Shown: positions 1-50,744, numbered from the stretch's first letter. The stretch is 64,000 bases of DNA from an uncultured virus (IMG/VR IMGVR_UViG_3300031774_000002) (IMGVR_UViG_3300031774_000002); one strand, 5' to 3'. Translations and numbers: made by a program. The notes: a model not told the origin generated them from the sequence alone.

Positions 1-408
1 TTTAGCAGTCATTTGTTTTGCTTTGTTTCTCACAGCAGTATGTTTGCTGGTATAACCTTTTCTGAGATCAGGATCTAAATCATTCTTTTTCATACCAAGC
101 TCAAATAAGTCATCTGAGTTAATCATCTTAAGACCGCTTGAGCTTGGTATTACATTTTTTGCTACATATGACTTTCCACTTCCTGGACCACCTGCTAGAA
201 ATATTGCTTTAAAGATTCCAGGATCATTTATACCTTCATCAAGAAAAAAGTCTTGCAATTCATTTACTTTAAGCAAGGTTGTTCTTGTTTTGGCATATGG
301 TGTCTGTTCAACAATCACTTTCTTTTTACTTTCAAATAGTGTGTTAAAGTCTTTCCCAGCTTTAGCAGGTGTATTTCGTTTCGCCATTTCAATAGCCAAA
401 TTATTCAT
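1..408 (-). CDS. P-loop kinase (AAA_33/PNK-like), partial, runs off the left edge
   Basis: Not in the ORF track; hand translation from ATG 408 (overlaps the upstream TAA): ...FLDEGINDPGIFKAIFLAGGPGSGKSYVAK..., Walker A; frame open to base 1. Confidence 0.8.
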   Translation of the reverse strand, partial: MNNLAIEMAKRNTPAKAGKDFNTLFESKKKVIVEQTPYAKTRTTLLKVNELQDFFLDEGINDPGIFKAIFLAGGPGSGKSYVAKNVIPSSSGLKMINSDDLFELGMKKNDLDPDLRKGYTSKHTAVRNKAKQMTAK

Positions 409-968
409 TATAATCCAAATTTCTTCATGAAGTCTTTGCGTTCTTTAATCTTAACTCTCTTTGCTTTCTGCTCAAGATAGCGTTTCAAAAACGCTTTCAT
501 TTCTTTCTTGCGTGCATCTGGCTTTTTCCAATGAACTTCATCATCACCAGTACCAGCCACAGCAGATCCTGTAGCATTAGCAGGAGCATCTTCGAATAGC
601 TTGCCGAAATCTTTTTGTTGTTTTGTATTTGAATCTATTTCATCCATTGCTTCGTATAACCCTTGTACCATTTCTTCTTCAGTAAATTCAGTTTGCGAAT
701 GGCTTTCTTTGATGAGGAACAAAGCAGCAGCATATGAAGCAAACTTGGATTTACCACCTGGAACTTTTTCTAGAAGTTTTTTGAGATTGAACACCATCCG
801 ATCATAATACCCATAAGCATTATTCTCTTCAGTAGTCTCGGGAGACTTTATTTTCTTCCCTCTCTCATCAATAATGCCTAACTTATAAGCATTGGTTTTA
901 TTGAAAGGTGTTGTCAACCTTTTAATAAATTGATAAGCGAGAATAAGATCTGCTATCTTTCCAGCCAT
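408..968 (-). CDS. conserved T4-like phage hypothetical protein
   Basis: 186 aa, YQFIKRLTTPF...AYKLGIID motif familiar from T4-like phages; coupled to neighbours. Confidence 0.7.
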   Translation of the reverse strand: MAGKIADLILAYQFIKRLTTPFNKTNAYKLGIIDERGKKIKSPETTEENNAYGYYDRMVFNLKKLLEKVPGGKSKFASYAAALFLIKESHSQTEFTEEEMVQGLYEAMDEIDSNTKQQKDFGKLFEDAPANATGSAVAGTGDDEVHWKKPDARKKEMKAFLKRYLEQKAKRVKIKERKDFMKKFGL

Positions 969-16134: not shown

Positions 16135-17229
16135 TTATGCAAAAAAACTTTCTAACGAACTTTTCTTTTCAGACTGCCATCCAACCGACTTCAGAATATA
16201 CTTTAGTGGTTCAAGGAATGCTTTCTGAAACTGCAATTCGCGGTCTATGTAGGAGTTTAACTCAAATTCTTTGGGCAGTGTTGTCATAACACTGATGATA
16301 TTTTGCCTTGTTGGATTAGGCAATTTCAAATAACAAAACTTAATCTTCTCACCATCTTTGATGGACTCATATTTTTTGGTGAGCTTCATATCACGAAGCA
16401 TATGATTATATACCAACCCACCACGAACATGAATTGGTGTTCCTTTAGGAATTGTCAGCTCATCACCCAATACTGTATACTTATTCAAATCAGAAATTGA
16501 ACGAGGAAAGGCAATGTCCTCGAAGCTGAAAGTATCAAACTTTTCTCTGAATTCAGAAATATAACTCTGCACTTCATCTTCACCTTTTGTCATAATAATC
16601 TTGATGGCTTCTTTCAAAGCATCACGACAGACTGCTGGTGTTGATGACTTAACAGTCTCAATACCCATCATCTTCAATTGCGGTTCAGCATAACGCACAC
16701 CCTCATTATCATACACATTCATCATGTAGCGTTTCTTAGCAGTCCAGATAGCTTTATCTGCAATCGCTTCACGCTTCATAAACATCTTTTGGGAATATGC
16801 GTTTGTTAGGTGTGCCAGCTCTTCATAACTTTTATCAATAAAAGGTTCCAACTTCTCAGCTGCAACTTTGTCCAAGAAATTGACGACTTTGACAGCATCA
16901 CTTCCCTCTTCAAAGCATTTGCGTACAAGTTTGTCGAGATTGACATAAATTGAATCTGTGTCCGACGCAATAACATAATCAACTTCGTCTGTATCCAAGA
17001 TCTTGTTGAGATATTCATTTACTCTCCTTTCAATCCATCTAATTGCTAACTGACCAGACAATGTAATTGCCTCTGCCTTTCGTACATCAAAGAATCGAAA
17101 GTATTTATTACCGACTGCACCATAAGCTGAGTTGAGCTGAACCTTTTTTGCAAGTTGAAGATTCTTGTACTTGCTTATATCTTTAACAAGTTGCTTCTTC
17201 CGTTCAAGAAGTTCAGCTCTTTCAGTCAT
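16135..17229 (-). CDS. gp43: family B DNA polymerase, C-terminal subunit (gp43B)
   Basis: KVQLNSAYG (motif B), ASDTDS (motif C), KKRY, C-terminal SSLESFF. Confidence 0.93.
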   Translation of the reverse strand: MTERAELLERKKQLVKDISKYKNLQLAKKVQLNSAYGAVGNKYFRFFDVRKAEAITLSGQLAIRWIERRVNEYLNKILDTDEVDYVIASDTDSIYVNLDKLVRKCFEEGSDAVKVVNFLDKVAAEKLEPFIDKSYEELAHLTNAYSQKMFMKREAIADKAIWTAKKRYMMNVYDNEGVRYAEPQLKMMGIETVKSSTPAVCRDALKEAIKIIMTKGEDEVQSYISEFREKFDTFSFEDIAFPRSISDLNKYTVLGDELTIPKGTPIHVRGGLVYNHMLRDMKLTKKYESIKDGEKIKFCYLKLPNPTRQNIISVMTTLPKEFELNSYIDRELQFQKAFLEPLKYILKSVGWQSEKKSSLESFFA

Positions 17230-17501
17230 TATACTACAATCCCGCTTGTTGCTTGAATATATGCTTTCTCAACATCTTCATTGGTTTCAGTCATGAATAC
17301 TGTTCCACCAGTATAGAAAGAAACTGAGTCAACATTTGCTTTACCTGTCGCACAAACGCCATGAGCAAATCCCATACCCTGCTCGCCATGGACAAGCATG
17401 CGTGGATCTTTGATAACAATACTAGCATCTGTTTCTTCTTCAAACTTACCAACAAACTCTCCAGTGAGAGTTACTAATGAAACTACAGTTCCTTTCTTCA
17501 T
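17229..17501 (-). CDS. small Sm-like beta protein between the two polymerase halves
   Basis: 90 aa, VVSLVTLTGEFVGK...IVIKDP pattern; overlaps both neighbours. Confidence 0.6.
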   Translation of the reverse strand: MKKGTVVSLVTLTGEFVGKFEEETDASIVIKDPRMLVHGEQGMGFAHGVCATGKANVDSVSFYTGGTVFMTETNEDVEKAYIQATSGIVV

Positions 17502-18952
17502 AATTCTAATAACCTTTTGTTTATCTGTTCAAGTTCAGTCTGTGCTTCAAGCATTTTTTGCTTATAGCCCACACGCTCATTATACATCTTCTCCATCATC
17601 TCAGGCAAGAAACCTTGCTTGTCTTTTCTGAAGTATCTACCATTACCAGCCATAGCGAAACCATCTGGTGGTGTTTGTATATCACGATCAATTATATCCT
17701 CAACCGTGACATTTGTCAACCACTCATCTTCAACAAATGTTTCGGGTGATATATTGTACTGCATGATAAGGTGAGGATATAGTGAGTTCAAATCAAAACT
17801 CATAACCCAATCATGCATACCAACATGCGGATCTTTCACATAAGCACCAGCAAACTGAGAGTTTTTGATTGATTCGCTTTTTGGTGGTATGACAATATTC
17901 TTTGACATGAGATAATTATGTATAAGAACATCCCACATTGTAACTTGAGTGAAGACATCGTTGTAGTTCACTTTGGCATCATAAGCAATCGCCAACGCAC
18001 CTTCAATCAGCTTCATCTTATCTTCAAGCCTATCAACAAGCTCAACATCCTTTATGTTATAGTCAATAAACTTTTTGTAATCTAGTTTGTAGAGTTGATT
18101 CAAGTTATCATACTCTGAATAATCAATCTTCTTTTCGCCCAACTCAACTTCACCTATATGATCAAGACGATATGATTCCTGCTGTGAATATGTAAACTTC
18201 TTATACAGCTGGAGATAATCAAGCAAAGCAATCCCAGTCAACTCATAGATTGTCTCTTCACGATTAAAGTTCCGAATGGTACGCTCTTTGATCCATCCAT
18301 AAGGTGATAAACGCTTAACAAACTTTTCATCAAATAATCTGCCAATACGGTTTACAAGATATGGAATATCAAAACCCTCAATGTTCCACCCAGTAACAAT
18401 ATCAGGATCAAGTCTTTGCCACAAAGCAACAAAGGCTGATAATAATTTCTTCTCATCTCGACAGTTTATGTAGCTGACATTATCCTTTCCGCTGTCATCA
18501 TACTCACCAACACCCATTACATAATATTGACGCTTACCGTTGCGTGTTAAGGATAGTGTGATTGCTGTAACTTCTTGATCAGCTTTTTCTGGAGCAGGGA
18601 ATCCATCATCAGAGGCAACCTCAATATCGATATTAGCAATACGAATAACATCTGTGTCATACTCGCTACCAAATCGCTCATTGACACAAACATGTGCCCA
18701 TTTAGTTGAGCCATAGATCTTGAAGTTCGACACACCCTCATATTTTTGTACGAAATAACCAGCTTCACGAATATCACCAAGAGCGACTTCTTCAACATAG
18801 TCGCCCTCTAATGTTTTCCATTTAGTTGGTTTTGGTGACGGAACATACATTTTAGGATTGTAATCGATCTTATGATCAAATCGTCTGCCGTCTTGATATC
18901 CACGGATGTTTACTTTGTTCCCACGGACATGAGCATGAGTATAAAAATACAT
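17498..18952 (-). CDS. gp43: family B DNA polymerase, N-terminal subunit (gp43A)
   Basis: ExoI DIE, ExoII GWNIEGFD, ExoIII YNIKD, motif A SFDLNSLYP; ends in the fingers helix. Confidence 0.93.
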   Translation of the reverse strand: MYFYTHAHVRGNKVNIRGYQDGRRFDHKIDYNPKMYVPSPKPTKWKTLEGDYVEEVALGDIREAGYFVQKYEGVSNFKIYGSTKWAHVCVNERFGSEYDTDVIRIANIDIEVASDDGFPAPEKADQEVTAITLSLTRNGKRQYYVMGVGEYDDSGKDNVSYINCRDEKKLLSAFVALWQRLDPDIVTGWNIEGFDIPYLVNRIGRLFDEKFVKRLSPYGWIKERTIRNFNREETIYELTGIALLDYLQLYKKFTYSQQESYRLDHIGEVELGEKKIDYSEYDNLNQLYKLDYKKFIDYNIKDVELVDRLEDKMKLIEGALAIAYDAKVNYNDVFTQVTMWDVLIHNYLMSKNIVIPPKSESIKNSQFAGAYVKDPHVGMHDWVMSFDLNSLYPHLIMQYNISPETFVEDEWLTNVTVEDIIDRDIQTPPDGFAMAGNGRYFRKDKQGFLPEMMEKMYNERVGYKQKMLEAQTELEQINKRLLEL

Positions 18953-36711: not shown

Positions 36712-37260
36712 CTACATAAGATTTTCAATAAAGCCAATAATTTTTTTCGTATCTTCAGGGACATTGTGTTCAAAAGCATGGACACATCCAGCTTCGCCCA
36801 TCAATATTTTTTCCCCAAACATATCTTCAATGTTAGCAACTTTCGTTACTCGCCCATTGATAAATGTTTCTGATTGATCAGAACCTCTATCAGCATAACG
36901 CTGTTCACGAACAGCATCATCTGTTTTTAATACTATAATTGTTAGATCATGCCCTGCTCTCTTCACAGCCTCAAAGAACTTAGAAGAAGTCAATCTGTCA
37001 CCCTCGAACACTACGACAGGTGATGGATTGTTTTCTAGGTATTCAATTGCCATTGGCTGTACTGCCATTGACAGTTTATCAGTACCAGCAAACACTTCTC
37101 CTTCATCATATTTACCAAACAAACGGATATCTCCAGAAACATAACCATCAAGCAACTTAACTGGAGTATCTTTAGTCCACTCTCGTTTTGACATCCACTC
37201 ACGCATAAGTGTTGTTTTTCCAGTTCCTGGAATTCCAATAATACCAATCACTTTACTCAT
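36712..37260 (-). CDS. P-loop kinase, putative 5-hydroxymethylpyrimidine-DNA kinase
   Basis: GIPGTGKT, GTDKLSMAVQP, FEGDRL; context next to TET/JBP and AADT genes. Confidence 0.75.
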   Translation of the reverse strand: MSKVIGIIGIPGTGKTTLMREWMSKREWTKDTPVKLLDGYVSGDIRLFGKYDEGEVFAGTDKLSMAVQPMAIEYLENNPSPVVVFEGDRLTSSKFFEAVKRAGHDLTIIVLKTDDAVREQRYADRGSDQSETFINGRVTKVANIEDMFGEKILMGEAGCVHAFEHNVPEDTKKIIGFIENLM

Positions 37261-38645
37261 GAAAAGAATCCTTCTAATGATGACTTTGTCACAACAGCTT
37301 CTGGATGATATTGCGATAACATTCCTTCACCGCCTTTCTGTTTCAGATAATCATACCACTCATCTTCAGCCCACATATTTGGCGAAACACCATTCCAAAA
37401 TTCTTTCCACAACTTGTGGTTCTTATTGAGTCTGCGATCATCAACATATTGTCTACGCAGTTTTTCATATTCCCAAGAACCAACCTCAAGCATTTTTTCA
37501 CGGAAGTAGCATACAAGAGATATGCGTTCCATTTCTTCAATAGTGGTTCCAGCAGGTGGTTTCAGTTCAGTGTTACCATGAATGCCACCATGATTATTGA
37601 TCAACAAAAGATCTCCTGGACGGATATTGATACCTACACGAAACTCTGGAAGGACAAGATAACCACCTTCCCAATTCTTTTCTTTAGCAACAACAGTAAG
37701 GTTTGAAAATCCTTCATTCAAATCACCAGCATCTCTGTGAGCTGCAGTTCTGAAGTTTTTATTTACAGTAATCGTAGTGAACGGTGTATCTTCACCAGCA
37801 ACACGAAAGCGTGGATCTAGCTTGCTTGCAGCTTCGTTTTGAATACCATAACGAATAGGTAAATGCTCCTTAAATTTGTCAGCTAATTGACGCATGAAAG
37901 GATAGCACTTCTCATAGACAGGATAGTTGTTCTCTGTATACGCAGTTGCTCGACCGTATGGAATACGAGGATATCGATCAAAGAATCCAGCAATACCTGA
38001 CAACACCATGTTAGCATATGTTGTCTCAGAGATATAGTTCTTTTGAGTTGCCTTTGCGTCTTTCTGAGCATCCTCTGCTGACATACCTTGCCATTCAGCA
38101 ACCTTGTCATTGAAGAATGATTCGTAATTATAACCACTATCAGTGATCTTAGATCTGATCCAAACTATACCACGAGATTCACCTGCTGTAATTGAAGCAT
38201 GTTTTGCTCTGATTCTTTCTACTGGATCAGTGTCATCTTCAAACAGAGAAACTTCACGCTCAGCAAAGTGCTTCATAATATCAAGCTGTTCTTCAGTTAC
38301 CCAATCACGACCGCCTTGCTTTGCTCCTTTTGGACCAGCAGCAAGACCACGATTTTGTGTAGGTAATGCAGCACCTAATAATCCTTCATAAGCACCGTGC
38401 TGTTGTTCTTCAGTAAAAACATTTTTGCGAAACTTAAAGATAATGTTATCTTCATTATTCTCACCACCAAACCCAGCAGGAGCATAGAAGTCAGTATCTT
38501 CTTCACAAATAAAATCCCAGTCAGTATCTTCCATATATTGACCGAGTTTGTGTTCACAATCATCCCAAAACTTGGCTGTAATGATTCTGACATTGTTTAC
38601 ATTATCTACCTTAACATCATACTTTTCGTTTATCACACCAATCAT
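37257..38645 (-). CDS. TET/JBP-like 2OG-Fe(II) dioxygenase
   Basis: FTTITVNKNFRTAAHRDAGD (HxD), GDLLL...IHGNT (distal H), RISLVCYFRE (2OG-binding R). Confidence 0.8.
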   Translation of the reverse strand: MIGVINEKYDVKVDNVNNVRIITAKFWDDCEHKLGQYMEDTDWDFICEEDTDFYAPAGFGGENNEDNIIFKFRKNVFTEEQQHGAYEGLLGAALPTQNRGLAAGPKGAKQGGRDWVTEEQLDIMKHFAEREVSLFEDDTDPVERIRAKHASITAGESRGIVWIRSKITDSGYNYESFFNDKVAEWQGMSAEDAQKDAKATQKNYISETTYANMVLSGIAGFFDRYPRIPYGRATAYTENNYPVYEKCYPFMRQLADKFKEHLPIRYGIQNEAASKLDPRFRVAGEDTPFTTITVNKNFRTAAHRDAGDLNEGFSNLTVVAKEKNWEGGYLVLPEFRVGINIRPGDLLLINNHGGIHGNTELKPPAGTTIEEMERISLVCYFREKMLEVGSWEYEKLRRQYVDDRRLNKNHKLWKEFWNGVSPNMWAEDEWYDYLKQKGGEGMLSQYHPEAVVTKSSLEGFFS

Positions 38646-39652
38646 ATCATAAATCTCTCTATTCCAACATTACTCATTTCATTTGTAAAAGTATTCATAT
38701 GGTCTATCTTCCCAGTGTCTAGGAATATCTCCATTTTACTCTTACTTATCGAATTAGTCAAGTATTCATTTCTCAATGTCTCTTTTCTAGCATCCCACAT
38801 GGGTGTCCAGTCAATACCATCCCATCCATCTCTCTCCACTTGCTTTATTTCTTCAGCTTGTCTGTCAATATAATAACCAAGATAACGACCTCTACTCTTG
38901 CGAAACAGTTTCTTAAATGAACACAGTGCTGTTTCCATAGCAAAAAAGTCTGCTTTGCTCTCAGCATTTGGGTGTGTGCGTTTTACATCTTCGAGTATTT
39001 TCTTTCCTTCTCCTTCCATCCATTGTATTTGATCATCTTCGAGCTTTTTATTCACCCAATCATCTTTACCTAAAGCATAACAAAGACCATTCCGATGAGA
39101 TCGAGATCCAGAATAGTCATGTAACCATAGACTTGGAACATCAACATTGAGACCAGCACACTGCTTTAGAGTTTGGATATAAAACCAAGATGTGTATCTT
39201 CCGAACTTGTGTAATGAAGTTACAGAATCCCAAACTTTTTGGAAGTTTTGATATTTGTCGCCACGACATAACTCTTCAAATGCATCTTCTTGTTTCCTAC
39301 CACCAACCCATTCTTTATAGGAAACAAATTGATCAGCAAGATGACCTTTATTCCATTTTGTATCTGTTTGATATCTGAGACGCGAATAGTTTTCATTGTT
39401 CCATTCACGCAAACGATCAACACCAACCAACTCCATATCAGGGAACTCATTCCAGATAAGGTATGCTGTTGGGAAGTTGTATGTTGTTCCATATAACCAA
39501 CAGAGCCATAACTTCTGTTCTGTGTTATATTCAAACCGATCAAAGAAGTAATTTGTGAGATACAATGCTGAGTCACAATCTTCTATCTCAAGACTCCACT
39601 TAAACCAGTTGACAAATGCTTGTCTACGATGTTCACTTAATCTATAATCCAC
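38642..39652 (-). CDS. aG/PT-PPlase family (amino acid:DNA transferase, HhH-glycosylase-like fold)
   Basis: WLCWLYG, YQTD, KFGRYTSWFY, ETALCSFKK, RYLGYY. Confidence 0.75.
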   Translation of the reverse strand: MDYRLSEHRRQAFVNWFKWSLEIEDCDSALYLTNYFFDRFEYNTEQKLWLCWLYGTTYNFPTAYLIWNEFPDMELVGVDRLREWNNENYSRLRYQTDTKWNKGHLADQFVSYKEWVGGRKQEDAFEELCRGDKYQNFQKVWDSVTSLHKFGRYTSWFYIQTLKQCAGLNVDVPSLWLHDYSGSRSHRNGLCYALGKDDWVNKKLEDDQIQWMEGEGKKILEDVKRTHPNAESKADFFAMETALCSFKKLFRKSRGRYLGYYIDRQAEEIKQVERDGWDGIDWTPMWDARKETLRNEYLTNSISKSKMEIFLDTGKIDHMNTFTNEMSNVGIERFMI

Positions 39653-40308
39653 TAAAAGAATTCCTCTAGAGTGTTTGGCTCATCACCTATTAATTTATCA
39701 CGCATCCAAAACTCTCCTACAGAAGAAATAGCTTCTTCTACAGTAGCAGTCTTTTTCTTACCAAAGCCATGAGACTCAAGCGATTCATCAAACAATTGTT
39801 TGATCACCTTTGGATCTTTAGGCAAAGCCAGATGCGGGACATTAATTGCTGTTGCCCTAAATGTGCACTGCTCCCTGATAGAAGGAAACAGTGGTTGATC
39901 AGAACGCAACGACCCAGTTGGATCAACAGCCCAAAATATCAAACCATTTCTTTTATGCCAAGTTATAGAAGATGGAGTGCAAGATATTTTCAAACGACTC
40001 ATGCCATTATTAAAAGCATCACTCATTACTCTTTCCCAGATAGCTGTAGCATATCCCTTTCCTTCATGACCTTGCCTAGTTACAATCTCATATAGATTAA
40101 TATATCTCGATCTTTGACTATAAGTAGCAAACACAAATGCAACCATTTCGCCATCAACCTCTAAGGCAAATGGCTTATTATCTTTTTCATAGTTTTTAAA
40201 ACGAAACCACAAACTGTGTGATGAATTGAGGAACTTTGTATTTTTTCCTTCAGGGGAGTTCTCAATGACTTTCTCAATCATCTCTTGTGAACATCTTACT
40301 ATGCGCAT
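39652..40308 (-). CDS. GNAT acetyltransferase
   Basis: LYEIVTRQGHEGKGYA (acetyl-CoA motif A). Confidence 0.75.
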   Translation of the reverse strand: MRIVRCSQEMIEKVIENSPEGKNTKFLNSSHSLWFRFKNYEKDNKPFALEVDGEMVAFVFATYSQRSRYINLYEIVTRQGHEGKGYATAIWERVMSDAFNNGMSRLKISCTPSSITWHKRNGLIFWAVDPTGSLRSDQPLFPSIREQCTFRATAINVPHLALPKDPKVIKQLFDESLESHGFGKKKTATVEEAISSVGEFWMRDKLIGDEPNTLEEFF

Positions 40309-40991
40309 TGTAAGTCTCTCACTAATGCACCACCACGCAATGGAGAAGATTTCTCTAGCTTTCCATTGTATGTGTATGTTACATACATGTCTGTTCTTTG
40401 TTGATTTGTAATTGCACTTCTTTTTAGAATATCTTTTGTTGATGCGAATACAATACCATTATTTCGCTCACTATACCATAGTGGTCTTGCTTCATTTCTA
40501 AATCCAGTTAGACTCTTATCTTTTTTGATACGACAGACAGCCATACTTGATGGGTAAAAATCATTCAATGGATCATTACCAGCCTCATATGATTTCAATA
40601 TCAATTCACTGTCATTAGCTGTTTCAGTGTTATATTTCCACTTCTCTTTATCTTCTTGTGATATAACACCATTGTGAACAATACTTTGATCACCATTAGA
40701 GAAAGGTTGATTGTATCGAAGATCAGATGTTGAATAGCGAATATGACCAATAAGGTAGATACCACCATCCTCATTTATCATACTCTGAATTGGATATTTT
40801 GCGAGGAACTCATCACAAGGGATGCCCTCTTTTATCGTATATATCTTAGAATCTTTGACATATGATACACCAGTCGCATGTTTCCCTCTTATCATAGATT
40901 CGCGGAAAATACGCTCTACCAGTTTAACATTCTCAATACTACCACGACTGACAGAGGATCTCTCTAACCAAACGCCTATCACACCACACAT
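40299..40991 (-). CDS. stand-alone class II (Ntn) glutamine amidotransferase
   Basis: MCGVIG (Cys2 nucleophile), RG..ATG, GHIRYST, NQPF, HNG, DSE, RPLW. Confidence 0.85.
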   Translation of the reverse strand: MCGVIGVWLERSSVSRGSIENVKLVERIFRESMIRGKHATGVSYVKDSKIYTIKEGIPCDEFLAKYPIQSMINEDGGIYLIGHIRYSTSDLRYNQPFSNGDQSIVHNGVISQEDKEKWKYNTETANDSELILKSYEAGNDPLNDFYPSSMAVCRIKKDKSLTGFRNEARPLWYSERNNGIVFASTKDILKRSAITNQQRTDMYVTYTYNGKLEKSSPLRGGALVRDLQCA

Positions 40992-41019: not shown

Positions 41020-41048
41020 ATTATACATTATCAAATGTAATTTGTCAA
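41020..41048 (-). promoter_or_regulatory. consensus sigma70 promoter for the modification operon
   Basis: TTGACA-N17-TATAAT. Confidence 0.8.
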
Positions 41049-41564
41049 GTTCTTCTTTCTTAGCTTATCTAACTTCTTTTTCTGTTTCTTTGCCTTTTCA
41101 ACATGATATGATGATGCTTTGCTCAAGAAGTTAATCCCAATAAGGTGGTCATATTCGTGCTGAAAACACTTAGATGTAAAGTCAGTCAAATTTTTTGTTA
41201 TTGTGACACCGTTATAATTTGAGAATCTAGCTCTTATATTTACAGGTCTTTTTACTGGGATGAAGATTCCAGGAAAACTCAAACACCCTTCTTCTTCTGT
41301 CAAGACCTCATCAGAGTACCCAACAATCCTTGGATTGAACACTGGTAAGACATCATCTGGTTTAGCTGGTAATCCAATAACAAATACTGATAAATTTATT
41401 CCGCATTGGTTTGCTGCCAGACCAACACCGCTGTTTTCAAGCATTGTAGCCTTGAGCCTTTCAAACAATACAACTGGATCCATCTGTGGGTTTTGAAAAT
41501 CAAACTCTTGTGTTGGTGTTCTTAAACACTGATGTGAGCTTGATACTAATTTATATGGCTTCAT
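41031..41564 (-). CDS. def: peptide deformylase
   Basis: GVGLAANQ, EGCLS, QHEYDHL. Confidence 0.93.
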   Translation of the reverse strand: MKPYKLVSSSHQCLRTPTQEFDFQNPQMDPVVLFERLKATMLENSGVGLAANQCGINLSVFVIGLPAKPDDVLPVFNPRIVGYSDEVLTEEEGCLSFPGIFIPVKRPVNIRARFSNYNGVTITKNLTDFTSKCFQHEYDHLIGINFLSKASSYHVEKAKKQKKKLDKLRKKNLTNYI

Positions 41565-44378: not shown

Positions 44379-44407
44379 ATTATACTACAATTCAATACAA
44401 GTGTCAA
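44379..44407 (-). promoter_or_regulatory. consensus sigma70 promoter for gp47
   Basis: TTGACA-N17-TATAAT. Confidence 0.8.
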
Positions 44408-44961
44408 GCAGAGTCCTTAGAGACCTTTTTCTTCACTTTTCTGCGTTTATTAGCTTCAAAGTCTTCAACAAACCGAGCCATATACTCTTCAGTCCATTCA
44501 CTATACTTCATATCATCATTATAGTCTTTACCACCATCGTGTTCTTGTCGATCTGATGTGTCACCTACCACATTGGTGTGTTCAGCATATTTAATTTTGA
44601 CATAGAGATTCTTTTTCTCTTTCTGAATTCTACGAAGAAACGCATAGTAGATAATCTGAGTAAAATAGGCAAATGGATTGTTTGACTTCTCAGGGTTAAA
44701 GTTGTCAATATATTGTAAACAGTTTTCAATACCATCGCAGATCATTTCATCGCGAAAAGTATAGTTCACAAAGTTTGGTTTATATGACAAGTGGGTGGCG
44801 ATCTTCATGATGCATTCAGCAATATAATTAGGAACAACAGGTCTTGGATCACCAGCTTCCTTTGCTTCCATTACACTCTGGCGAAATTCAGTCATCGCCC
44901 CCAGAAACTTTTTATTGTCTACATAATATGGCTTTTTCTTCGCTTCTTTGCTCTTACTCAT
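44404..44961 (-). CDS. gp55: late-transcription sigma factor
   Basis: YVDNK, NFVNYTFRDEMICDGIENC, NPFAYFTQI. Confidence 0.95.
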   Translation of the reverse strand: MSKSKEAKKKPYYVDNKKFLGAMTEFRQSVMEAKEAGDPRPVVPNYIAECIMKIATHLSYKPNFVNYTFRDEMICDGIENCLQYIDNFNPEKSNNPFAYFTQIIYYAFLRRIQKEKKNLYVKIKYAEHTNVVGDTSDRQEHDGGKDYNDDMKYSEWTEEYMARFVEDFEANKRRKVKKKVSKDSA

Positions 44962-44968
44962 AATCCCC

Positions 44969-45388
44969 TCAATGCATTGATGTATTTGCTGATAAATGAT
45001 AGACATTATCTATCTGTTTTGGTTTATCATCTATAATTTTTAATTTCTTCAACAGCTCATCTATTTCTTGTGCTGTCATCGAATCCTTCTTACTATTAAA
45101 AAAAGTGCCACCATCTTCCCTCATCGCCCTTAAACAGTTATCATAATATTCAACCATATCATCATCAACATCTACTGTTACTAGGATAGTAGATTGTTTT
45201 AAGTGAAGCAAGTTTACTGCTTTAGTTAATGGAACCCATATTGTAGATATACAAACTGGCGATGCTCCTGTCCTAGACTGTATGATCATTTGAACTGGAT
45301 CTATAATATGTAGATGAGTTTCATCTTCATGTGTAACTTCTGCTATTAGTGTATCACCATTCACCAGCTTAATAATCTTAATGCTCAT
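44969..45388 (-). CDS. hypothetical protein, Sm-like N-terminus
   Basis: IKIIKLVNGDTLIAEV...IIDP; usual position between uvsW and gp55. Confidence 0.6.
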   Translation of the reverse strand: MSIKIIKLVNGDTLIAEVTHEDETHLHIIDPVQMIIQSRTGASPVCISTIWVPLTKAVNLLHLKQSTILVTVDVDDDMVEYYDNCLRAMREDGGTFFNSKKDSMTAQEIDELLKKLKIIDDKPKQIDNVYHLSANTSMH

Positions 45389-46850
45389 TATCAATTCCTA
45401 TGTTATATATTTTGTATGTAAAGTTTTCTTCATTATACATTTTAACCCTTACTGCAAAATGTTTCAATGTGTGGTTGTTGTATGACTTCCAGCTAAGATC
45501 ATCTGATATGTCATAGAGTGTAGCAACCTCTTTACTGTCCCCTTTCCTCAAACCACGACCTATTGACTGTAAGTTCCTTATGCGTGATTTACTAGGACTA
45601 GCAAAGATAACATTATGTAAGTTTCTGATATTAATCCCAGTTGAGAAAGTTCCATAAGAAGCGATGATAATTGCATCTTCTTCTTTCTCAACAACTGCTC
45701 TAACTTGTTCTCTTGTTTCTGCATCTACTCCACCGTATATAAAAAATACTTGTCGACCTTCTTCAGCCGATTCTTTTATTTGGTTATACAACATCTTACC
45801 GTGTTTTTCTACATATTGGAAGAGTAATAGTGTATTACCTTTTCTTGTCAAAGTCAAGTTCTTAATGAACGCATTTCTTCTATCGTGCTTGACCAAGAAG
45901 TCCATTTCTTCCTGATATGTTTTCCTATTCATCATCTTACGAATAGCATCACTATATTTTAAAACTAGACATTTTATCCTGAAGTCTGCCAAAGTATTAT
46001 TATCAATAAGCTCTTTGGTTGTTATCACTTTCATAACTGGACCAAACAAACCCTCTAGCACCAACTTGTTTGTTACAGTTCCGTCTAATGTACCTGTGAA
46101 GCCAAACCTATATTTACAATCAACCATCTTCTCCATTATCTTGGTGAGTGATGTAGCCTTAAATAAATGTGCTTCATCTCCAATTATAATATCAAACTGA
46201 TCAAAATATGATTTTGGTTGTTTATATATGCTCTGCCATGTGCTGATAATTATTTGTGCTTCAGGGTCAGATTTTGCTTGACCTCCAGTCACTAAGTGTG
46301 TATAATAAGGTTGTCCCTTTTCGGAATAGTCTATAAAGTCAGTATTCAACTGAGAAACAAGTGATGTAGTTGGTACAATAACCAGAGCTTTCTTACAAGT
46401 CTTTCTTAGATAGTATTTCAGTAAGCAGTAGATAATGAATGATTTACCTGATGCTGTTGGGGAAAGGATCAAGGCTCTGTGATTGCGGATAGCATGAGCA
46501 ACTGCTCTTAGCTGATAGTCTCTTGGTTTATAGTTTTCCTCTTCAAGAAATTTCTCTAATCCATTTAATGGCAGGTCAATAGTATCATCCAAACCATCAT
46601 GTACTATGACTTCATAATCCCTTTCTTCAGCAAACTTCTTTAACTTCTCTATTAGACCAACATATATCTGCATTGAATTAACATTAAAAAGTCGGATTTT
46701 TCCATCCCACATTTTAGATCTAACTGAAGGAATGAATGATGCATTAGGCACAAGAAACTCAAAATAACTTGAAAGTTCCATAGCGATACCACGATCACAT
46801 TCGACCTTTAGATGCACCTCATTCTTCTTGTATATGTTGATCTGTTCCAT
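45378..46850 (-). CDS. uvsW: SF2 helicase
   Basis: PRDYQ, SPTASGKS, DEAH, TGT, QSIGRGLR. Confidence 0.95.
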   Translation of the reverse strand: MEQINIYKKNEVHLKVECDRGIAMELSSYFEFLVPNASFIPSVRSKMWDGKIRLFNVNSMQIYVGLIEKLKKFAEERDYEVIVHDGLDDTIDLPLNGLEKFLEEENYKPRDYQLRAVAHAIRNHRALILSPTASGKSFIIYCLLKYYLRKTCKKALVIVPTTSLVSQLNTDFIDYSEKGQPYYTHLVTGGQAKSDPEAQIIISTWQSIYKQPKSYFDQFDIIIGDEAHLFKATSLTKIMEKMVDCKYRFGFTGTLDGTVTNKLVLEGLFGPVMKVITTKELIDNNTLADFRIKCLVLKYSDAIRKMMNRKTYQEEMDFLVKHDRRNAFIKNLTLTRKGNTLLLFQYVEKHGKMLYNQIKESAEEGRQVFFIYGGVDAETREQVRAVVEKEEDAIIIASYGTFSTGINIRNLHNVIFASPSKSRIRNLQSIGRGLRKGDSKEVATLYDISDDLSWKSYNNHTLKHFAVRVKMYNEENFTYKIYNIGIDNEH

Positions 46851-47284: not shown

Positions 47285-47317
47285 TTTTCACCTCATAAAA
47301 TAGTTACATGCTTCAAT

Positions 47318-47346
47318 ATTATATCGTATTACTGAATTGTAGTCAA
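47318..47346 (-). promoter_or_regulatory. sigma70-type promoter for uvsY
   Basis: TTGACT-N17-TATAAT. Confidence 0.7.
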
Positions 47347-47850
47347 CTCATATTTCCTATAATTAAAACTGACTTGGGCTGAAAGATAATCAACATCAGA
47401 GTTCTCTATACTAAACTCTAATGATGAAAGATTAGTTGGGTACATATCAACAAATTTAACTTCAATATTTGGTGTCATGGCTGCAGTCGTGATAATCATT
47501 GAACCATCAGAATATATATTACCAGTGTTGTCTTTAGTTCTTCCAAGAGCCTTTGATTGATCAAAACTGTCTGGATAACCAAGACCAATCAACCAATCGT
47601 ATATTTCAGAAAAGTTTTTCATATCTTCATCAACGCGGAATGTTAATTGCAACGCACCAAAGTCTAGCTTGTCACCTGGAATTGGAAGTTTCGCGAATGG
47701 ATTTTGAACTTCAGTTGGTGCACTAAGAGAGATATCAGGTATCGCTGCAGCAGTACAAAAATAATTTACATGTGGCAATCTTTGTACGCTGAATCTAAAC
47801 CCTATTGGAGAAAGAAAACTTTTATTTGTTGGTTGTGATGGAACAGTCAT
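47329..47850 (-). CDS. gp3: tail completion / tube terminator protein
   Basis: FLSPIGFRF, PGDKL.F..L...F.VDEDM.N; synteny. Confidence 0.8.
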   Translation of the reverse strand: MTVPSQPTNKSFLSPIGFRFSVQRLPHVNYFCTAAAIPDISLSAPTEVQNPFAKLPIPGDKLDFGALQLTFRVDEDMKNFSEIYDWLIGLGYPDSFDQSKALGRTKDNTGNIYSDGSMIITTAAMTPNIEVKFVDMYPTNLSSLEFSIENSDVDYLSAQVSFNYRKYELTTIQ

Positions 47851-47876
47851 TTGCTTTTCCTATGATTAATATTATC

Positions 47877-47884
47877 TATTTATA
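47877..47884 (-). promoter_or_regulatory. T4-type late promoter TATAAATA
   Basis: exact consensus upstream of gp3. Confidence 0.8.
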
Positions 47885-47890
47885 ATCAAT

Positions 47891-47920
47891 AAAAAAAGGG
47901 GAATATTAAACTCCCCTTTC
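47891..47920 (-). terminator. intrinsic terminator after the YRGV peptide gene
   Basis: AAAGGGGAG-loop-TTCCCCTTT-TTTT. Confidence 0.8.
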
Positions 47921-47936
47921 TTCCACGCACTAACAA

Positions 47937-48035
47937 TTAACTGACCTTAACACCTCTGTAAACACGCTCAGATCTAGTTTTATTTTTGGCAGATTTTTTA
48001 GGTGCAACTCGCACACCACGATATATAATAGTCAT
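47937..48035 (-). CDS. 32-aa basic peptide with two YRGV motifs (DUF4278-like)
   Basis: MTIIYRGVRVAPKKSAKNKTRSERVYRGVKVS; SD AGGAGA; not in the ORF track. Confidence 0.8.
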   Translation of the reverse strand: MTIIYRGVRVAPKKSAKNKTRSERVYRGVKVS

Positions 48036-48063
48036 AGCTATCTCCTATAGTTAAATAAAAGAT

Positions 48064-48116
48064 GCGTTCCTTCGACACAATTGTCTACTTCCGTTCACTT
48101 ATAGTGAATGAACGAT
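48064..48116 (-). promoter_or_regulatory. glutamine riboswitch (glnA motif, glutamine-I class)
   Basis: AUCGUUC-A-[UUCACU AUA AGUGAA]-CGGAAGUA-[GACA AUUG UGUC]-GAAG-GAACGC: P1/P2/P3 three-way junction with the conserved GGAAGUA and GAAG segments. Confidence 0.85.
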
Positions 48117-48169
48117 GTAGTCTTTTGACCGATGACTTATCGGAGCATATCAGAATAGATATACACCAT

Positions 48170-48177
48170 TATTTATA
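48170..48177 (-). promoter_or_regulatory. T4-type late promoter TATAAATA driving the riboswitch leader
   Basis: exact consensus immediately downstream of the gp23 terminator. Confidence 0.8.
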
Positions 48178-48182
48178 AGAAT

Positions 48183-48209
48183 AAAAAAAGAGGCTCCGAA
48201 GAGCCTCTT
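48183..48209 (-). terminator. gp23 terminator with cUUCGg loop
   Basis: AAGAGGCTC-TTCG-GAGCCTCTT-TTTTT. Confidence 0.9.
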
Positions 48210-48242
48210 ATAAAGTTGTCTGTTAAGACAGATCTTTTTATC

Positions 48243-49610
48243 TTATACCAAGTTAGCAACTTTAACGCGACGGTAGTAAGAGTTTTTACTAGCAAAGTTA
48301 ACAGCACTTGCAGCAAATGGGTTCGCAACCATGCCGTAGCGAGTTTTGAAACCGATTTTTGGTTGGAAGGTATTCTCACCAACCGCACGAACCATTTGTA
48401 GAGGCACATATGGGCAGTAGAATAAACCAGCATCAAAGGCACTATCACCTTTGTAACCAATAGTGAAGTAGTTGTTAGTTGTATCAGAGAAGTATGGATC
48501 AATGTATACTTTGATACGACCATTTAATACACCAGCGAAAGTGTTACCAGTGTCATCTACTTGCAAGTTGTTGCTAAGTGCAGGAGCATAGTCAAGAACA
48601 CCAGCCATTTGAAGAGCAGAAGCTACATCAGATGAAGTGATCAAAACATTACCTTTACCGCGACGAGTTGCTTTACCGATTGCGTTAGCTTCACGCTCGA
48701 TTTGGAACATTAAGCCTTTGAACTTCTCAACAGACCAGCGACCGTTTGAGTCAGTGTCTAGATCGAAAACACCATTATTAGTTACAAGACCTTGTGCACC
48801 GATAGTAGCAGTGTAGTTGATAGTACGAACAACTTCACGGTTAATTTCAGCAAGGATCTCAGTAGATAAGATGTTGCTTAACTCTTGCTCAGCATCTAAA
48901 CCATGGACAGCTTTAAGATCTTGAGCTAATTCCATAGTGTATTCTGCTTTTAACGCACGAGATACAGCTGTTACACTGATTTTCTCGATAGAGAACGCCA
49001 TTTCAGCAAAAGAGTTACCAGCTGCATCGCCAAGAGCTTCAGCAGTAGCAGTTGACATACCAGTGTGAACAGTATAGCCAGAACCAGAAGCAGCTTCAGT
49101 TGCATCTTGACCAGCTTGAGTAGTACCAGCAGCACCATCGATTACACCACCGAAGTTTGCTGTGTTAGCAGTCTCACTACCGATTGCAGAGAATGAAGTG
49201 TCAGCTTCGTTAAATAAGGCTTCAGTACCAGCTTGAGTATTGAGGCGTGATTTCATCGCAAAGATAAGACCAGTTGGACCAGTCATTGGCTGTACGCCAC
49301 AAATATCATAAGCGATAAGGTTAGGCATTGAGCGACGCACTAAGCTGATTAGGACAGGATCGAAAGTATCGACACTACCGTCACCAGCAGTAGAGCTAGA
49401 TGCACCCATTGCGTTTACTGGTGCTGCTTCGCCTAAAAGCGAAGGAGCGTGAGCACCGCCAGACTGAGCAGATTGCTCAGCTGCAGCTCGTTCTTGGTTT
49501 TCTAAAAGAGTTGCAACAGTTGAACGCTTGTGAGCGTCAGTGATCGAAGGAAGATCAGCGTGCTCAAGAACAGGTTGCCACTTCTTTTGTAGACTATCAG
49601 ATTGAATCAT
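48243..49610 (-). CDS. gp23: major capsid protein
   Basis: DICGVQPMTGPTGLIFAM, SRALKAEYTMELAQDLKAVHGLDAE, FQPKIGFKTRYG. Confidence 0.98.
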   Translation of the reverse strand: MIQSDSLQKKWQPVLEHADLPSITDAHKRSTVATLLENQERAAAEQSAQSGGAHAPSLLGEAAPVNAMGASSSTAGDGSVDTFDPVLISLVRRSMPNLIAYDICGVQPMTGPTGLIFAMKSRLNTQAGTEALFNEADTSFSAIGSETANTANFGGVIDGAAGTTQAGQDATEAASGSGYTVHTGMSTATAEALGDAAGNSFAEMAFSIEKISVTAVSRALKAEYTMELAQDLKAVHGLDAEQELSNILSTEILAEINREVVRTINYTATIGAQGLVTNNGVFDLDTDSNGRWSVEKFKGLMFQIEREANAIGKATRRGKGNVLITSSDVASALQMAGVLDYAPALSNNLQVDDTGNTFAGVLNGRIKVYIDPYFSDTTNNYFTIGYKGDSAFDAGLFYCPYVPLQMVRAVGENTFQPKIGFKTRYGMVANPFAASAVNFASKNSYYRRVKVANLV

Positions 49611-49654
49611 TATAGGTTCTCCTTAAAATAAGACCTTTTATTAAATTACTTGAT

Positions 49655-49662
49655 TATTTATA
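49655..49662 (-). promoter_or_regulatory. T4-type late promoter TATAAATA
   Basis: upstream of gp23. Confidence 0.8.
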
Positions 49663-49667
49663 AAAAA

Positions 49668-50744
49668 TTACTTTTTAATGCTTTTTGAAATGGCATTCAA
49701 GTACGCACTCATGCTAGGATCAGCATGATTTGTCTCTTCAGTTAATTCATCTAACTCAAGAGGCTCTTCATCGACAACCACTTGCTCAGCGACAACTTCT
49801 TCTTTAGGGAAGTAGCTCTCTTTGAGTGTCTCTAACTTTTCAGCATATGAATCTTCATCTTCAAACTCTACGCCTTCAGACAAAGAAGCCAGCTTAACGG
49901 CTTGAGACTCTGTGATATCTTCGCAAGCAGAAGCTAAGATCGCAGATTTCTTTGACTCAACTAATTCTTTGCGAAGAACGATGTTTCTTTCCATTTCTTC
50001 ATTGATTGAAGATTCGAGCTCAGTAACCTTAGATGCTAATTCATCAACAAGGTCAACTTTCTCTTCTGGAATATCGATGTAGTTTTCAGTGAACAGACTG
50101 CGTAAACCAGTCATGAAGTTCTCAACGATTTCTGCTCGAACTCCTTGCTCAACTGCTAACTCATTTTCTTGCATCCACTCTTCAGCGACATACTCTAAGT
50201 AGTCATCTAAGCGTGATGAAAGAGATTCATTAATGGTAGATTTTTCTGCTTCAAGTTCTGCTTCAAAATCAACAGTAACAGATTCTAAAACTTCGTTGAC
50301 TTTTGAAACTACTGCAGCTTCAAAGATAGTTGTAGCTTTTGATACAAAATCTTCTGAAAGATCTTGACCACCAAACATTGCTTCAACATCTTCAGCGATA
50401 GATACATCTTCAGCACTAATCTGACGGATTTCTTTGATAGATTGTGTATCAGCTTCTTCTGAAACTTCTTCAGCTTCAAAACCTTCAACCTTCAAAGATG
50501 CCATAACCTTACCATAGTTTGCTGCGATGTCGTCTTTCTTCATGCCTTTAACAGCATCCATCATAGCATTGATCATACCAACTTTTGTTTTGGGAGCAGG
50601 CACTTGTTTAGGAGCACCCTTCTTAATTTCTGCAGCATTGTCGTCAGCGATTTTTTCGCCATCAACTTCTGGTGCAGCATTCGCTTCTTCGAGAGCGTCA
50701 TCAGTTTGCTCAACTTCTACACCCTCTAGTTCTAAATCAGACAT
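49668..50744 (-). CDS. gp22: prohead core scaffold
   Basis: acidic coiled coil, KATTIFEAAV, YLEYVAEEW, KLETLKESYF; synteny. Confidence 0.9.
   Translation of the reverse strand: MSDLELEGVEVEQTDDALEEANAAPEVDGEKIADDNAAEIKKGAPKQVPAPKTKVGMINAMMDAVKGMKKDDIAANYGKVMASLKVEGFEAEEVSEEADTQSIKEIRQISAEDVSIAEDVEAMFGGQDLSEDFVSKATTIFEAAVVSKVNEVLESVTVDFEAELEAEKSTINESLSSRLDDYLEYVAEEWMQENELAVEQGVRAEIVENFMTGLRSLFTENYIDIPEEKVDLVDELASKVTELESSINEEMERNIVLRKELVESKKSAILASACEDITESQAVKLASLSEGVEFEDEDSYAEKLETLKESYFPKEEVVAEQVVVDEEPLELDELTEETNHADPSMSAYLNAISKSIKK

Follow-up and report, generated by a model that had tools for sequence, protein, structure and literature searches.

A predicted glutamine-responsive late cassette for a DUF4278-like micro-peptide, located after g23 in an uncultured marine T4-like phage

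Introduction

In an uncultured marine T4-like phage, a short unit just behind the major capsid gene (g23) raises the question of whether a phage may read a host metabolite, glutamine, which is the nitrogen signal of the cell, through an RNA in order to decide on the production of one tiny late protein. The window analysed, i.e. the whole stretch of DNA at its full length of 64,000 nt, is contained in a viral record of 110,317 bases with a CheckV completeness estimate of 61%; window positions 1–819 lie outside the contig G000.

Glutamine riboswitches of phages are already published (PMC5473149, PMC9004378, PMC9964418). Weinberg et al. (2010) located the motif in marine metagenomes as well as in cyanobacteria and pointed out copies in tandem (PMC2864571), McCown et al. 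(2017) came upon no more than two glutamine aptamers among cyanophage genomes and regarded riboswitches as rare in phages (PMC5473149), the riboswitch is named among the non-coding RNAs of T4-like cyanophages (PMC9964418, PMC9602691), and a paper from 2025 places RF01739 in SAR86 (PMC12379486). No paper tying phage glutamine riboswitches to YRG/DUF4278 peptides was found in the literature searched, supplements aside, and the single paper there that mentions both DUF4278 and phage lists a host gene.

By analogy with tested cyanobacterial switches, the most likely role of the unit is that of a translational switch, turned ON by glutamine, that would govern a DUF4278-like micro-peptide on top of late transcription. 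A probability of roughly 70% is given to this mechanism jointly with the layout of the locus, i.e. a moron of ca. 290 bases that forms a self-contained late cassette and sits as an insertion between g23 and g3 of the uncultured marine T4-like myovirus. Cassettes of such kind are already common in marine phages, and the variant traits of the present unit are a late promoter replacing the NtcA site, a minimal cargo of 32 residues, the insertion between g23 and g3, and a host not shown to be cyanobacterial.

Organization of the locus

The unit was located on the minus strand, with g23 on one side and a gp3-like tail gene on the other (Table 1); at the position of the latter, cultured relatives have a gene annotated as tail completion protein gp3. 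All elements of the original prediction, which had described a riboswitch-controlled unit with its own promoter, leader, aptamer, Shine-Dalgarno (SD) sequence, ORF and terminator, were present at their positions on this strand. The unit is classed as a moron for having its own promoter and its own terminator and in being missing at the same site in close relatives.

Table 1. Features of the region between g23 and g3, listed in the direction of transcription (window positions).
Feature	Position	Strand	Evidence or detail
g23 major capsid gene, upstream neighbour	48243–49610	−	phrog_138 major head protein, E 1.2e-163
Intrinsic terminator of g23	48188–48209	−	9-pair stem (5 G-C), then T run
T4-type late promoter TATAAATA of the unit (predicted)	48170–48177	−	Sequence match, strand-specific enrichment
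5′ leader, 47 nt	48117–48163	−	Small hairpin 48143–48129 and A-rich stretch, 3′ end GACUAC
Type-1 glutamine riboswitch aptamer (RF01739), 56 nt	48061–48116	−	59.6 bits, full model
Spacer from aptamer to ORF, 25 nt	Contains Shine-Dalgarno AGGAGA, 48046–48041	−	
Expression platform (predicted)	48037–48065	−	Aptamer 3′ tail 48065–48055 pairs with SD region 48048–48037
32-aa ORF MTIIYRGVRVAPKKSAKNKTRSERVYRGVKVS	47937–48035, stop codon included	−	ORF listing and DUF4278/PHROG matches
Intrinsic terminator of the unit	47891–47923	−	14-pair stem, then T run
Second TATAAATA, late promoter of g3 (predicted)	47877–47884	−	26 nt before g3 (start 47850)
gp3-like tail completion gene, downstream neighbour	47329–47850	−	phrog_45, E 2.3e-34

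Phage genome, host and habitat

The gene content of the 110 kb comprised T4 core genes together with cobS, mazG, hsp20 and a peptide deformylase gene, with a G+C content of 37%. Photosystem genes (psbA) and hli were not seen in the 110 kb, from which ca. 39% of the genome may be missing, and tRNA genes were found neither in the window nor in the rest of the record. The capsid protein was equally distant, at 61–64% identity, from its counterparts in phages of Stenotrophomonas, Pelagibacter, OM43, Synechococcus and Prochlorococcus; capsid identity gave no assignment of the host, the closest cultured relative reaching 64%. The unit was devoid of the NtcA box GTAN8TAC, the nearest one being inside g23 (48276–48289), and the 16 occurrences of the box in the window against 9.6 expected represent no enrichment. 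The gene content, the missing NtcA box and the equal distance of the capsid from several phage groups agree with the remark in the original prediction that nothing in the window points to a cyanophage. Sequencing runs from marine and seawater samples, belonging to 16 studies, contained the stretch, and a contig of 10,049 bases from another sample was identical over 47300–48356.

Elsewhere in the window, a four-gene run (37257–40991, minus strand) suggests DNA base hypermodification, and consists of a Tet/JBP 2OG-Fe(II) oxygenase (37257–38645), an amino acid:DNA transferase of family ADDT (38642–39436), a GNAT acetyltransferase (39652–40308) and a class-II glutamine amidotransferase domain (40299–40991), after which comes the peptide deformylase gene (41031–41564). 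The gp43 DNA polymerase was split (16135–18952, minus strand) into an N-terminal ORF (17498–18952) and a C-terminal ORF (16135–17229), with a 90-aa ORF of phrog_527 (17229–17501) between the halves. A 55-aa Hc1 histone-H1-like protein and a protein with a NifU N-terminal domain were encoded between baseplate genes (L123 14441–15076; contig G000:C1, about 95441–96076).

Predicted late transcription of the unit

The TATAAATA motif occurred 14 times in the window, always on the coding strand, against 4.87 occurrences expected, and a count of 14 was reached by none of 100 shuffles. The sites preceded g3, the riboswitch unit, g23, g22 and further late genes. As the phage also encodes gp55 (44404–45006, phrog_234, E 1.4e-60), gp45 (phrog_223) and a gp33-like late coactivator (Trans_coact match, E 6.3e-20), both the enrichment of the motif and the presence of these three genes support the T4-type late promoter that had been proposed for the unit.

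Four terminator-like hairpins were returned by the terminator scan in the 1.4 kb region, against 0.7 expected, and two of these bracket the unit. Because of its own late promoter and the bracketing terminators, the unit looks like a monocistronic late transcript of ca. 280 nt: late in infection, gp55-directed RNA polymerase would start at TATAAATA (48177–48170) and stop at 47923–47891. Contigs from RNA runs matched parts of g23 exactly (X20 at 49248–49495 and 49466–49700; also X21); among those of the 4 of 24 runs that were compared, no contig spanned 47300–48270, and such contigs are unable to reveal transcript starts.

The combination of a riboswitch with a late promoter, which had been regarded as unusual, turned out otherwise. 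Of 118 viral riboswitch loci among the matches listed, 45 had ATAAATA no more than 100 nt ahead of the aptamer, against 3 on the opposite strand, and the coupling is therefore ordinary in the viral set.

Glutamine aptamer

When the window was compared with all Rfam families by cmscan, RF01739 was matched at 48116–48061 over model positions 1–53 of 53 (E 1.3e-10), with a score well over the gathering score of 35 bits. The proposed glnA-class aptamer is hence genuine by covariance model, on which basis the 5′ leader is predicted to fold into a type-1 glutamine aptamer and is classified as glutamine riboswitch type 1 (glnA RNA, RF01739). The helices were P1 CGUUC/GAACG, P2 UUCAC/GUGAA and P3 GAC/GUC; in the cmscan alignment, P2 and P3 were preserved by compensatory changes on both sides, and the consensus junction letters ACGGAAGUAG and GAAGGAACGCAUC were all matched. 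RF01739 was the sole Rfam match within the window and a single copy in the 110,317-base record, where it had the same score.

The 32-aa peptide and glutamine synthetase

The peptide MTIIYRGVRVAPKKSAKNKTRSERVYRGVKVS has two YRGV motifs, 10 K/R and one D/E among its 32 residues, and a pI of 11.5. Its match to DUF4278 (PF14105) scored 17.8 bits (E 0.0045), below the gathering score of 25.3, with residues 1–29 aligned to profile positions 1–31 of 57, and the peptide is therefore termed “DUF4278-like”, being no member by the curated rule. The PHROG match was to phrog_5049 (E 5.3e-4). Of the viral YRG relatives scanned, 20 of 21 matched DUF4278 at E ≤0.01 (best 3e-9), and the peptide was 50% identical to that of one such relative (L050). 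The original assignment to YRG/DUF4278 was thus upheld by the repeated YRG(V) motifs and by homologues that are members, and fell short in the peptide's own score, which is below the Pfam cut-off.

In an alignment of 25 viral YRG peptides, the common pattern was M, 2–4 residues, YRGV, a variable spacer, and YRGVK followed by W, Y or F, with Y26, R27 and G28 conserved at 90–100%. Arginine in 47 YRG motifs was encoded by CGN in 30 and by AGA in 17 cases, and such mixed codons speak for selection on the protein, less on the RNA. A tblastn query with the 32-aa peptide against cultured phages remained without matches even at E ≤10. In cyanobacteria, the ORFs that follow this aptamer class begin with MKLTYRGV and repeat YRG. 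To our knowledge, the function of the YRG/DUF4278 motif is not known even in cyanobacteria, and a natural minimal version of 32 residues lends itself well to the search for its target.

Unlikely, in our estimate, is that the peptide is a viral inactivating factor of the IF17/IF7 type, which would bind host glutamine synthetase (GS) at high glutamine and stop nitrogen assimilation late in infection. The aptamer is reported to precede a DUF4278 gene in 25 of 28 cyanobacterial genomes, and gifB/IF17 carries DUF4278 (PMC6212724); the peptide is small and strongly basic, as inactivating factors are described to be (PMC6316151), and a weak RF01739 match lies before a YRG ORF in two cultured cyanomyophages, P-SSM2 and DSL-LC02. 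However, DUF4278 is the N-terminal moiety of IF17, which according to the same account stabilises the protein and is dispensable for GS inactivation, when the GS-binding residues sit in the IF7-like C-terminal part (PMC6316151). This C-terminal region is absent from the 32-aa peptide, and the action on nitrogen assimilation that the original prediction had envisaged was not borne out, since the peptide covers DUF4278 positions 1–31 only, i.e. the dispensable part. The short DUF4278 proteins of Prochlorococcus are likewise without the IF7-like part, with a function given as unproven (PMC6212724). Further against an inactivating factor, the genome is without cyanophage marks (capsid, gene content, NtcA box), and a Porticoccaceae metagenome-assembled genome (MAG) has a tandem riboswitch and a YRG peptide amid housekeeping genes: two tandem aptamers and a 3×YRG ORF stand between phosphatase and transporter genes, with prfC and ferrochelatase genes, and also an integrase gene, nearby. 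YRG peptides accordingly extend beyond cyanobacteria.

Predicted expression platform and direction of the switch

Pairing of the aptamer 3′ tail with the SD region would bury the SD sequence up to one base before the AUG. In isolation, the hairpin 48065–48037 had a folding energy of −9.0 kcal/mol, which was equalled by 1 of 500 shuffles, and the same anti-RBS hairpin was found in the minimum free energy (MFE) fold of the 281-nt transcript. For comparison, at least 120 viral loci were collected by a strict aptamer pattern and, with the window added, an SD-preceded start was placed in 117 of the 121 loci, which yielded 86 distinct tail/RBS combinations. Among these 86 combinations from the matches listed, the tail paired with its own RBS at a mean of −7.09 kcal/mol, against −5.01 (sd 0.14) for permuted partners, and the observed value was reached by 0 of 200 permutations.

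In 18 distinct loci with a 25-nt spacer, 93.5% of the cells of a six-pair helix were paired, against 87.2% in shuffled columns and 40–66% in slid registers, where the helix was derived from the same 18 loci on which it was counted, the loci are interrelated, and the window represents another spacing class. Eight double changes, from C-G to U-A, were observed at two pairs of the anti-RBS helix in the 18 equal-spacing loci. The tail adjacent to P1 can accordingly pair with the ribosome-binding site in a helix that covaries among relatives; this covariation points to control at the level of translation, and supports in viruses the model proposed for cyanobacteria.

Upon two-dimensional folding with the aptamer enforced, a nine-pair hairpin persisted (−16.1 kcal/mol) and the SD sequence was not freed, and the unconstrained MFE structure (−19.5 kcal/mol) lacked P1 and contained a longer hairpin. 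Tertiary contacts must therefore underlie the switch, and as plain folding gave no release, the ON direction is drawn from tested cyanobacterial switches. According to Klähn et al. (2018), tertiary contacts of the aptamer were described by Ren et al. in 2015. Klähn et al. (2018) proposed the same tail/RBS helix for the Synechocystis gifB leader, in which the C adjoining P1 is described as becoming long-range paired upon glutamine binding, with a rise in expression (PMC6212724).

By analogy with gifB, the nucleotides directly 3′ of P1, GCAUCUUUUAU, would at low glutamine pair with the SD region and block the entry of ribosomes. At high glutamine the aptamer would compact, and the conserved C adjoining P1 would be taken into the long-range pair, which may loosen the blocking helix and allow the basic 2×YRGV peptide to be translated. 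Glutamine would in this way serve as a read-out of the nitrogen state of the infected cell.

It is quite unlikely that the sign of the switch is the opposite, with glutamine repressing translation, or that P1 and the U-rich tail CAUCUUUUAUUU make up a transcription terminator stabilised by glutamine. P1 is trailed by a U-rich stretch, and release of the SD sequence is absent from the two-dimensional models of the aptamer fold, but P1 closes a three-way junction and forms no G+C-rich hairpin, the U run begins 4 nt behind P1, and no site was returned there by the terminator scan. Moreover, glutamine is reported to have raised expression with both riboswitch types tested (PMC6212724), and the tail/RBS covariation indicates control at the translational level.

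Insertion of the cassette between g23 and g3

The closest gp23 relative with g3 (L258; 82% over the gp23 C-terminus and 70% over gp3) has the same g23 terminator hairpin and a TATAAATA leading directly into g3, with no unit in between. Among 62 relatives holding both g23 and g3, the gap between the genes was 67–143 nt in 48 and 256–908 nt in 14, and it is 392 nt in the window. In a search behind g23 in related phages, which had been suggested for the cassette, an aptamer was present within 700 nt in one of 71 relatives (those of 80 with enough downstream sequence; by Rfam, 1/20), and the rest were without. None of seven cultured T4-like phages had an aptamer in the g23–g3 region, their slots holding other small ORFs or nothing, and whole-record RF01739 searches of HTVC008M, DLP_6 and S-SZBM1 gave no match.

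Among the viral aptamer loci in the matches listed, 25 of 120 directly follow the gp23 C-terminus, which is thereby a favoured slot. That a riboswitch behind g23 is a conserved feature of the lineage, as this count suggested, was rejected on the 1/71, 1/20 (Rfam) and 0/7 (cultured) incidences.

The promoter, the leader hairpin, the aptamer and the YRG ORF are homologous among three phages with diverged capsids, i.e. the present one, L305 and L050. The leader hairpin and the AAAAGACUAC stretch recur before the aptamer in the two relatives, and the changes preserve pairing. Absence from nearly all relatives and sharing by diverged phages together imply that the cassette is either mobile or repeatedly lost. 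The hairpin stem is CCGAU/AUCGG in the window (leader part at 48117–48143) and CCAU/AUGG in both L305 (leader at 2700–2745) and L050 (leader at about 470–440, minus strand). The GACUAC of the leader is almost complementary to GUAGAC within the aptamer, and the unit of L050 is bicistronic, with a second small ORF containing a hydrophobic stretch between the YRG ORF and the terminator (about 245–150, minus strand).

Glutamine riboswitch loci in marine viruses and bacteria

The number of loci with the strict aptamer pattern in marine viral contigs (at least 120) is far above what the riboswitch literature consulted implies. Among the matches listed, an ORF was called in 116 viral loci, of which approximately 28 encode YRG peptides behind the aptamer, and several unrelated small ORF families stand behind the others; these family counts are rough, as GTG starts were allowed and some ORFs were consequently mis-called, with 33 in the class “other”. 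Twelve non-YRG peptides from behind viral aptamers matched no Pfam family, and one of the 12 matched PHROGs. The cargo thus consists of uncharacterised basic micro-peptides, which gene callers tend to overlook or to assign to the opposite strand.

The same pattern was found at at least 121 loci in genome contigs, mostly cyanobacterial among the matches listed, the others including SAR86, SAR116, Pelagibacteraceae and other proteobacterial MAGs and single-cell genomes. Five proteobacterial MAGs (Porticoccaceae, SAR86 and others; L341 6395–6700, corresponding to G001:C45:23394–23700, and also G002–G005) each had precisely two RF01739 aptamers in tandem ahead of a small ORF. A gp23 query against these five MAGs, Porticoccaceae included, gave no match, and the MAGs may represent host-side sources of the phage cassettes.

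In a very improbable reading, the unit would be no regulator of host metabolism and the product a nitrogen-costly, optional basic peptide, for example a DNA/RNA counter-ion or virion-associated, made beside the capsid genes only when glutamine signals plentiful nitrogen, for which the late position behind the capsid gene, the 25 of 120 viral loci in that slot among the matches listed, the several unrelated peptide families with Lys/Arg-rich examples, and K or R at 10 of the 32 residues would speak, but both YRG motifs are conserved far past the needs of charge alone.

The switch-controlled YRG cassette may in turn be one copy of a widespread class of portable, glutamine-gated late morons in marine T4-like phages, a tentative proposal for which we see slightly less than even odds when its parts are taken together. 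Each member of the class would combine a late promoter with one or two type-1 aptamers, an anti-RBS helix that covaries, and a basic micro-peptide from one of six or more unrelated families; members would often stand right behind the major capsid gene, and occur both in phages of heterotrophs (OM43, SAR11, and possibly hosts resembling SAR86 or Porticoccaceae) and in cyanophages. In that case, the glutamine of the host would act late in infection as a general checkpoint for nitrogen, and two published views would call for revision, namely that riboswitches are rarely used by phages and that the switch of phage Melnitz controls the tmRNA.

Comparison with known systems

The nearest cellular parallel is the gifB leader of Synechocystis sp. 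PCC 6803, which, like the window, is described with RF01739 in the 5′ UTR and a P1-adjacent tail that can pair with the RBS (PMC6212724), and in both, YRG/DUF4278 motifs stand at the start of the ORF that follows. In contrast, the gifB promoter is NtcA-regulated, whereas the promoter of the unit is of the T4 late type and the GTAN8TAC box is missing from the unit, and IF17 has 149 aa with a GS-binding C-terminal part, when the window product has 32 aa and is without that part. PMM1846 of Prochlorococcus MED4 and other short DUF4278 proteins are, by the published accounts, small, basic, DUF4278-only and glutamine-activated (PMC6212724, PMC6316151). They differ in being encoded by cellular genes behind glutamine-II (Downstream-peptide, RF01704, type 2) riboswitches and in being longer (about 7 kDa).

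Phage-encoded YRG ORFs (phrog_5049, phrog_545) are also present in the cyanomyophages P-SSM2 (PSSM2_320), DSL-LC02, S-SRM01, P-SSM5 and P-SSM7. In P-SSM2 and DSL-LC02, RF01739 is matched ca. 200 nt upstream of the YRG ORF with borderline scores of 35.1 and 35.6 bits, respectively, and in DSL-LC02 another annotated small ORF separates the two. These cyanomyophage ORFs are near nrd/td genes, whereas the present unit is behind g23.

A single RF01739 aptamer is also present in each of two T4-like marine myoviruses that infect heterotrophs, Methylophilales phage Melnitz and Pelagibacter phage Mosig, and Buchholz et al. (2022) read these aptamers as controlling the tmRNA (PMC9004378). Both aptamers are located elsewhere in the genome than that of the window, beside ssrA or tRNA genes, and the Mosig aptamer precedes the annotated 51-aa Mosig_00116. 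In Melnitz (L132 1501–1667; MZ577097.1, about 46398–46567, plus strand), the aptamer overlaps the 3′ end of the annotated tmRNA, and an unannotated 32-codon ORF begins 25 nt past the aptamer on the same strand, where the record annotates a CDS on the opposite strand. The Melnitz switch more likely controls this 32-codon ORF, and less the tmRNA. The short ORFs behind the Melnitz and Mosig aptamers belong to another family than the YRG ORF of the window.
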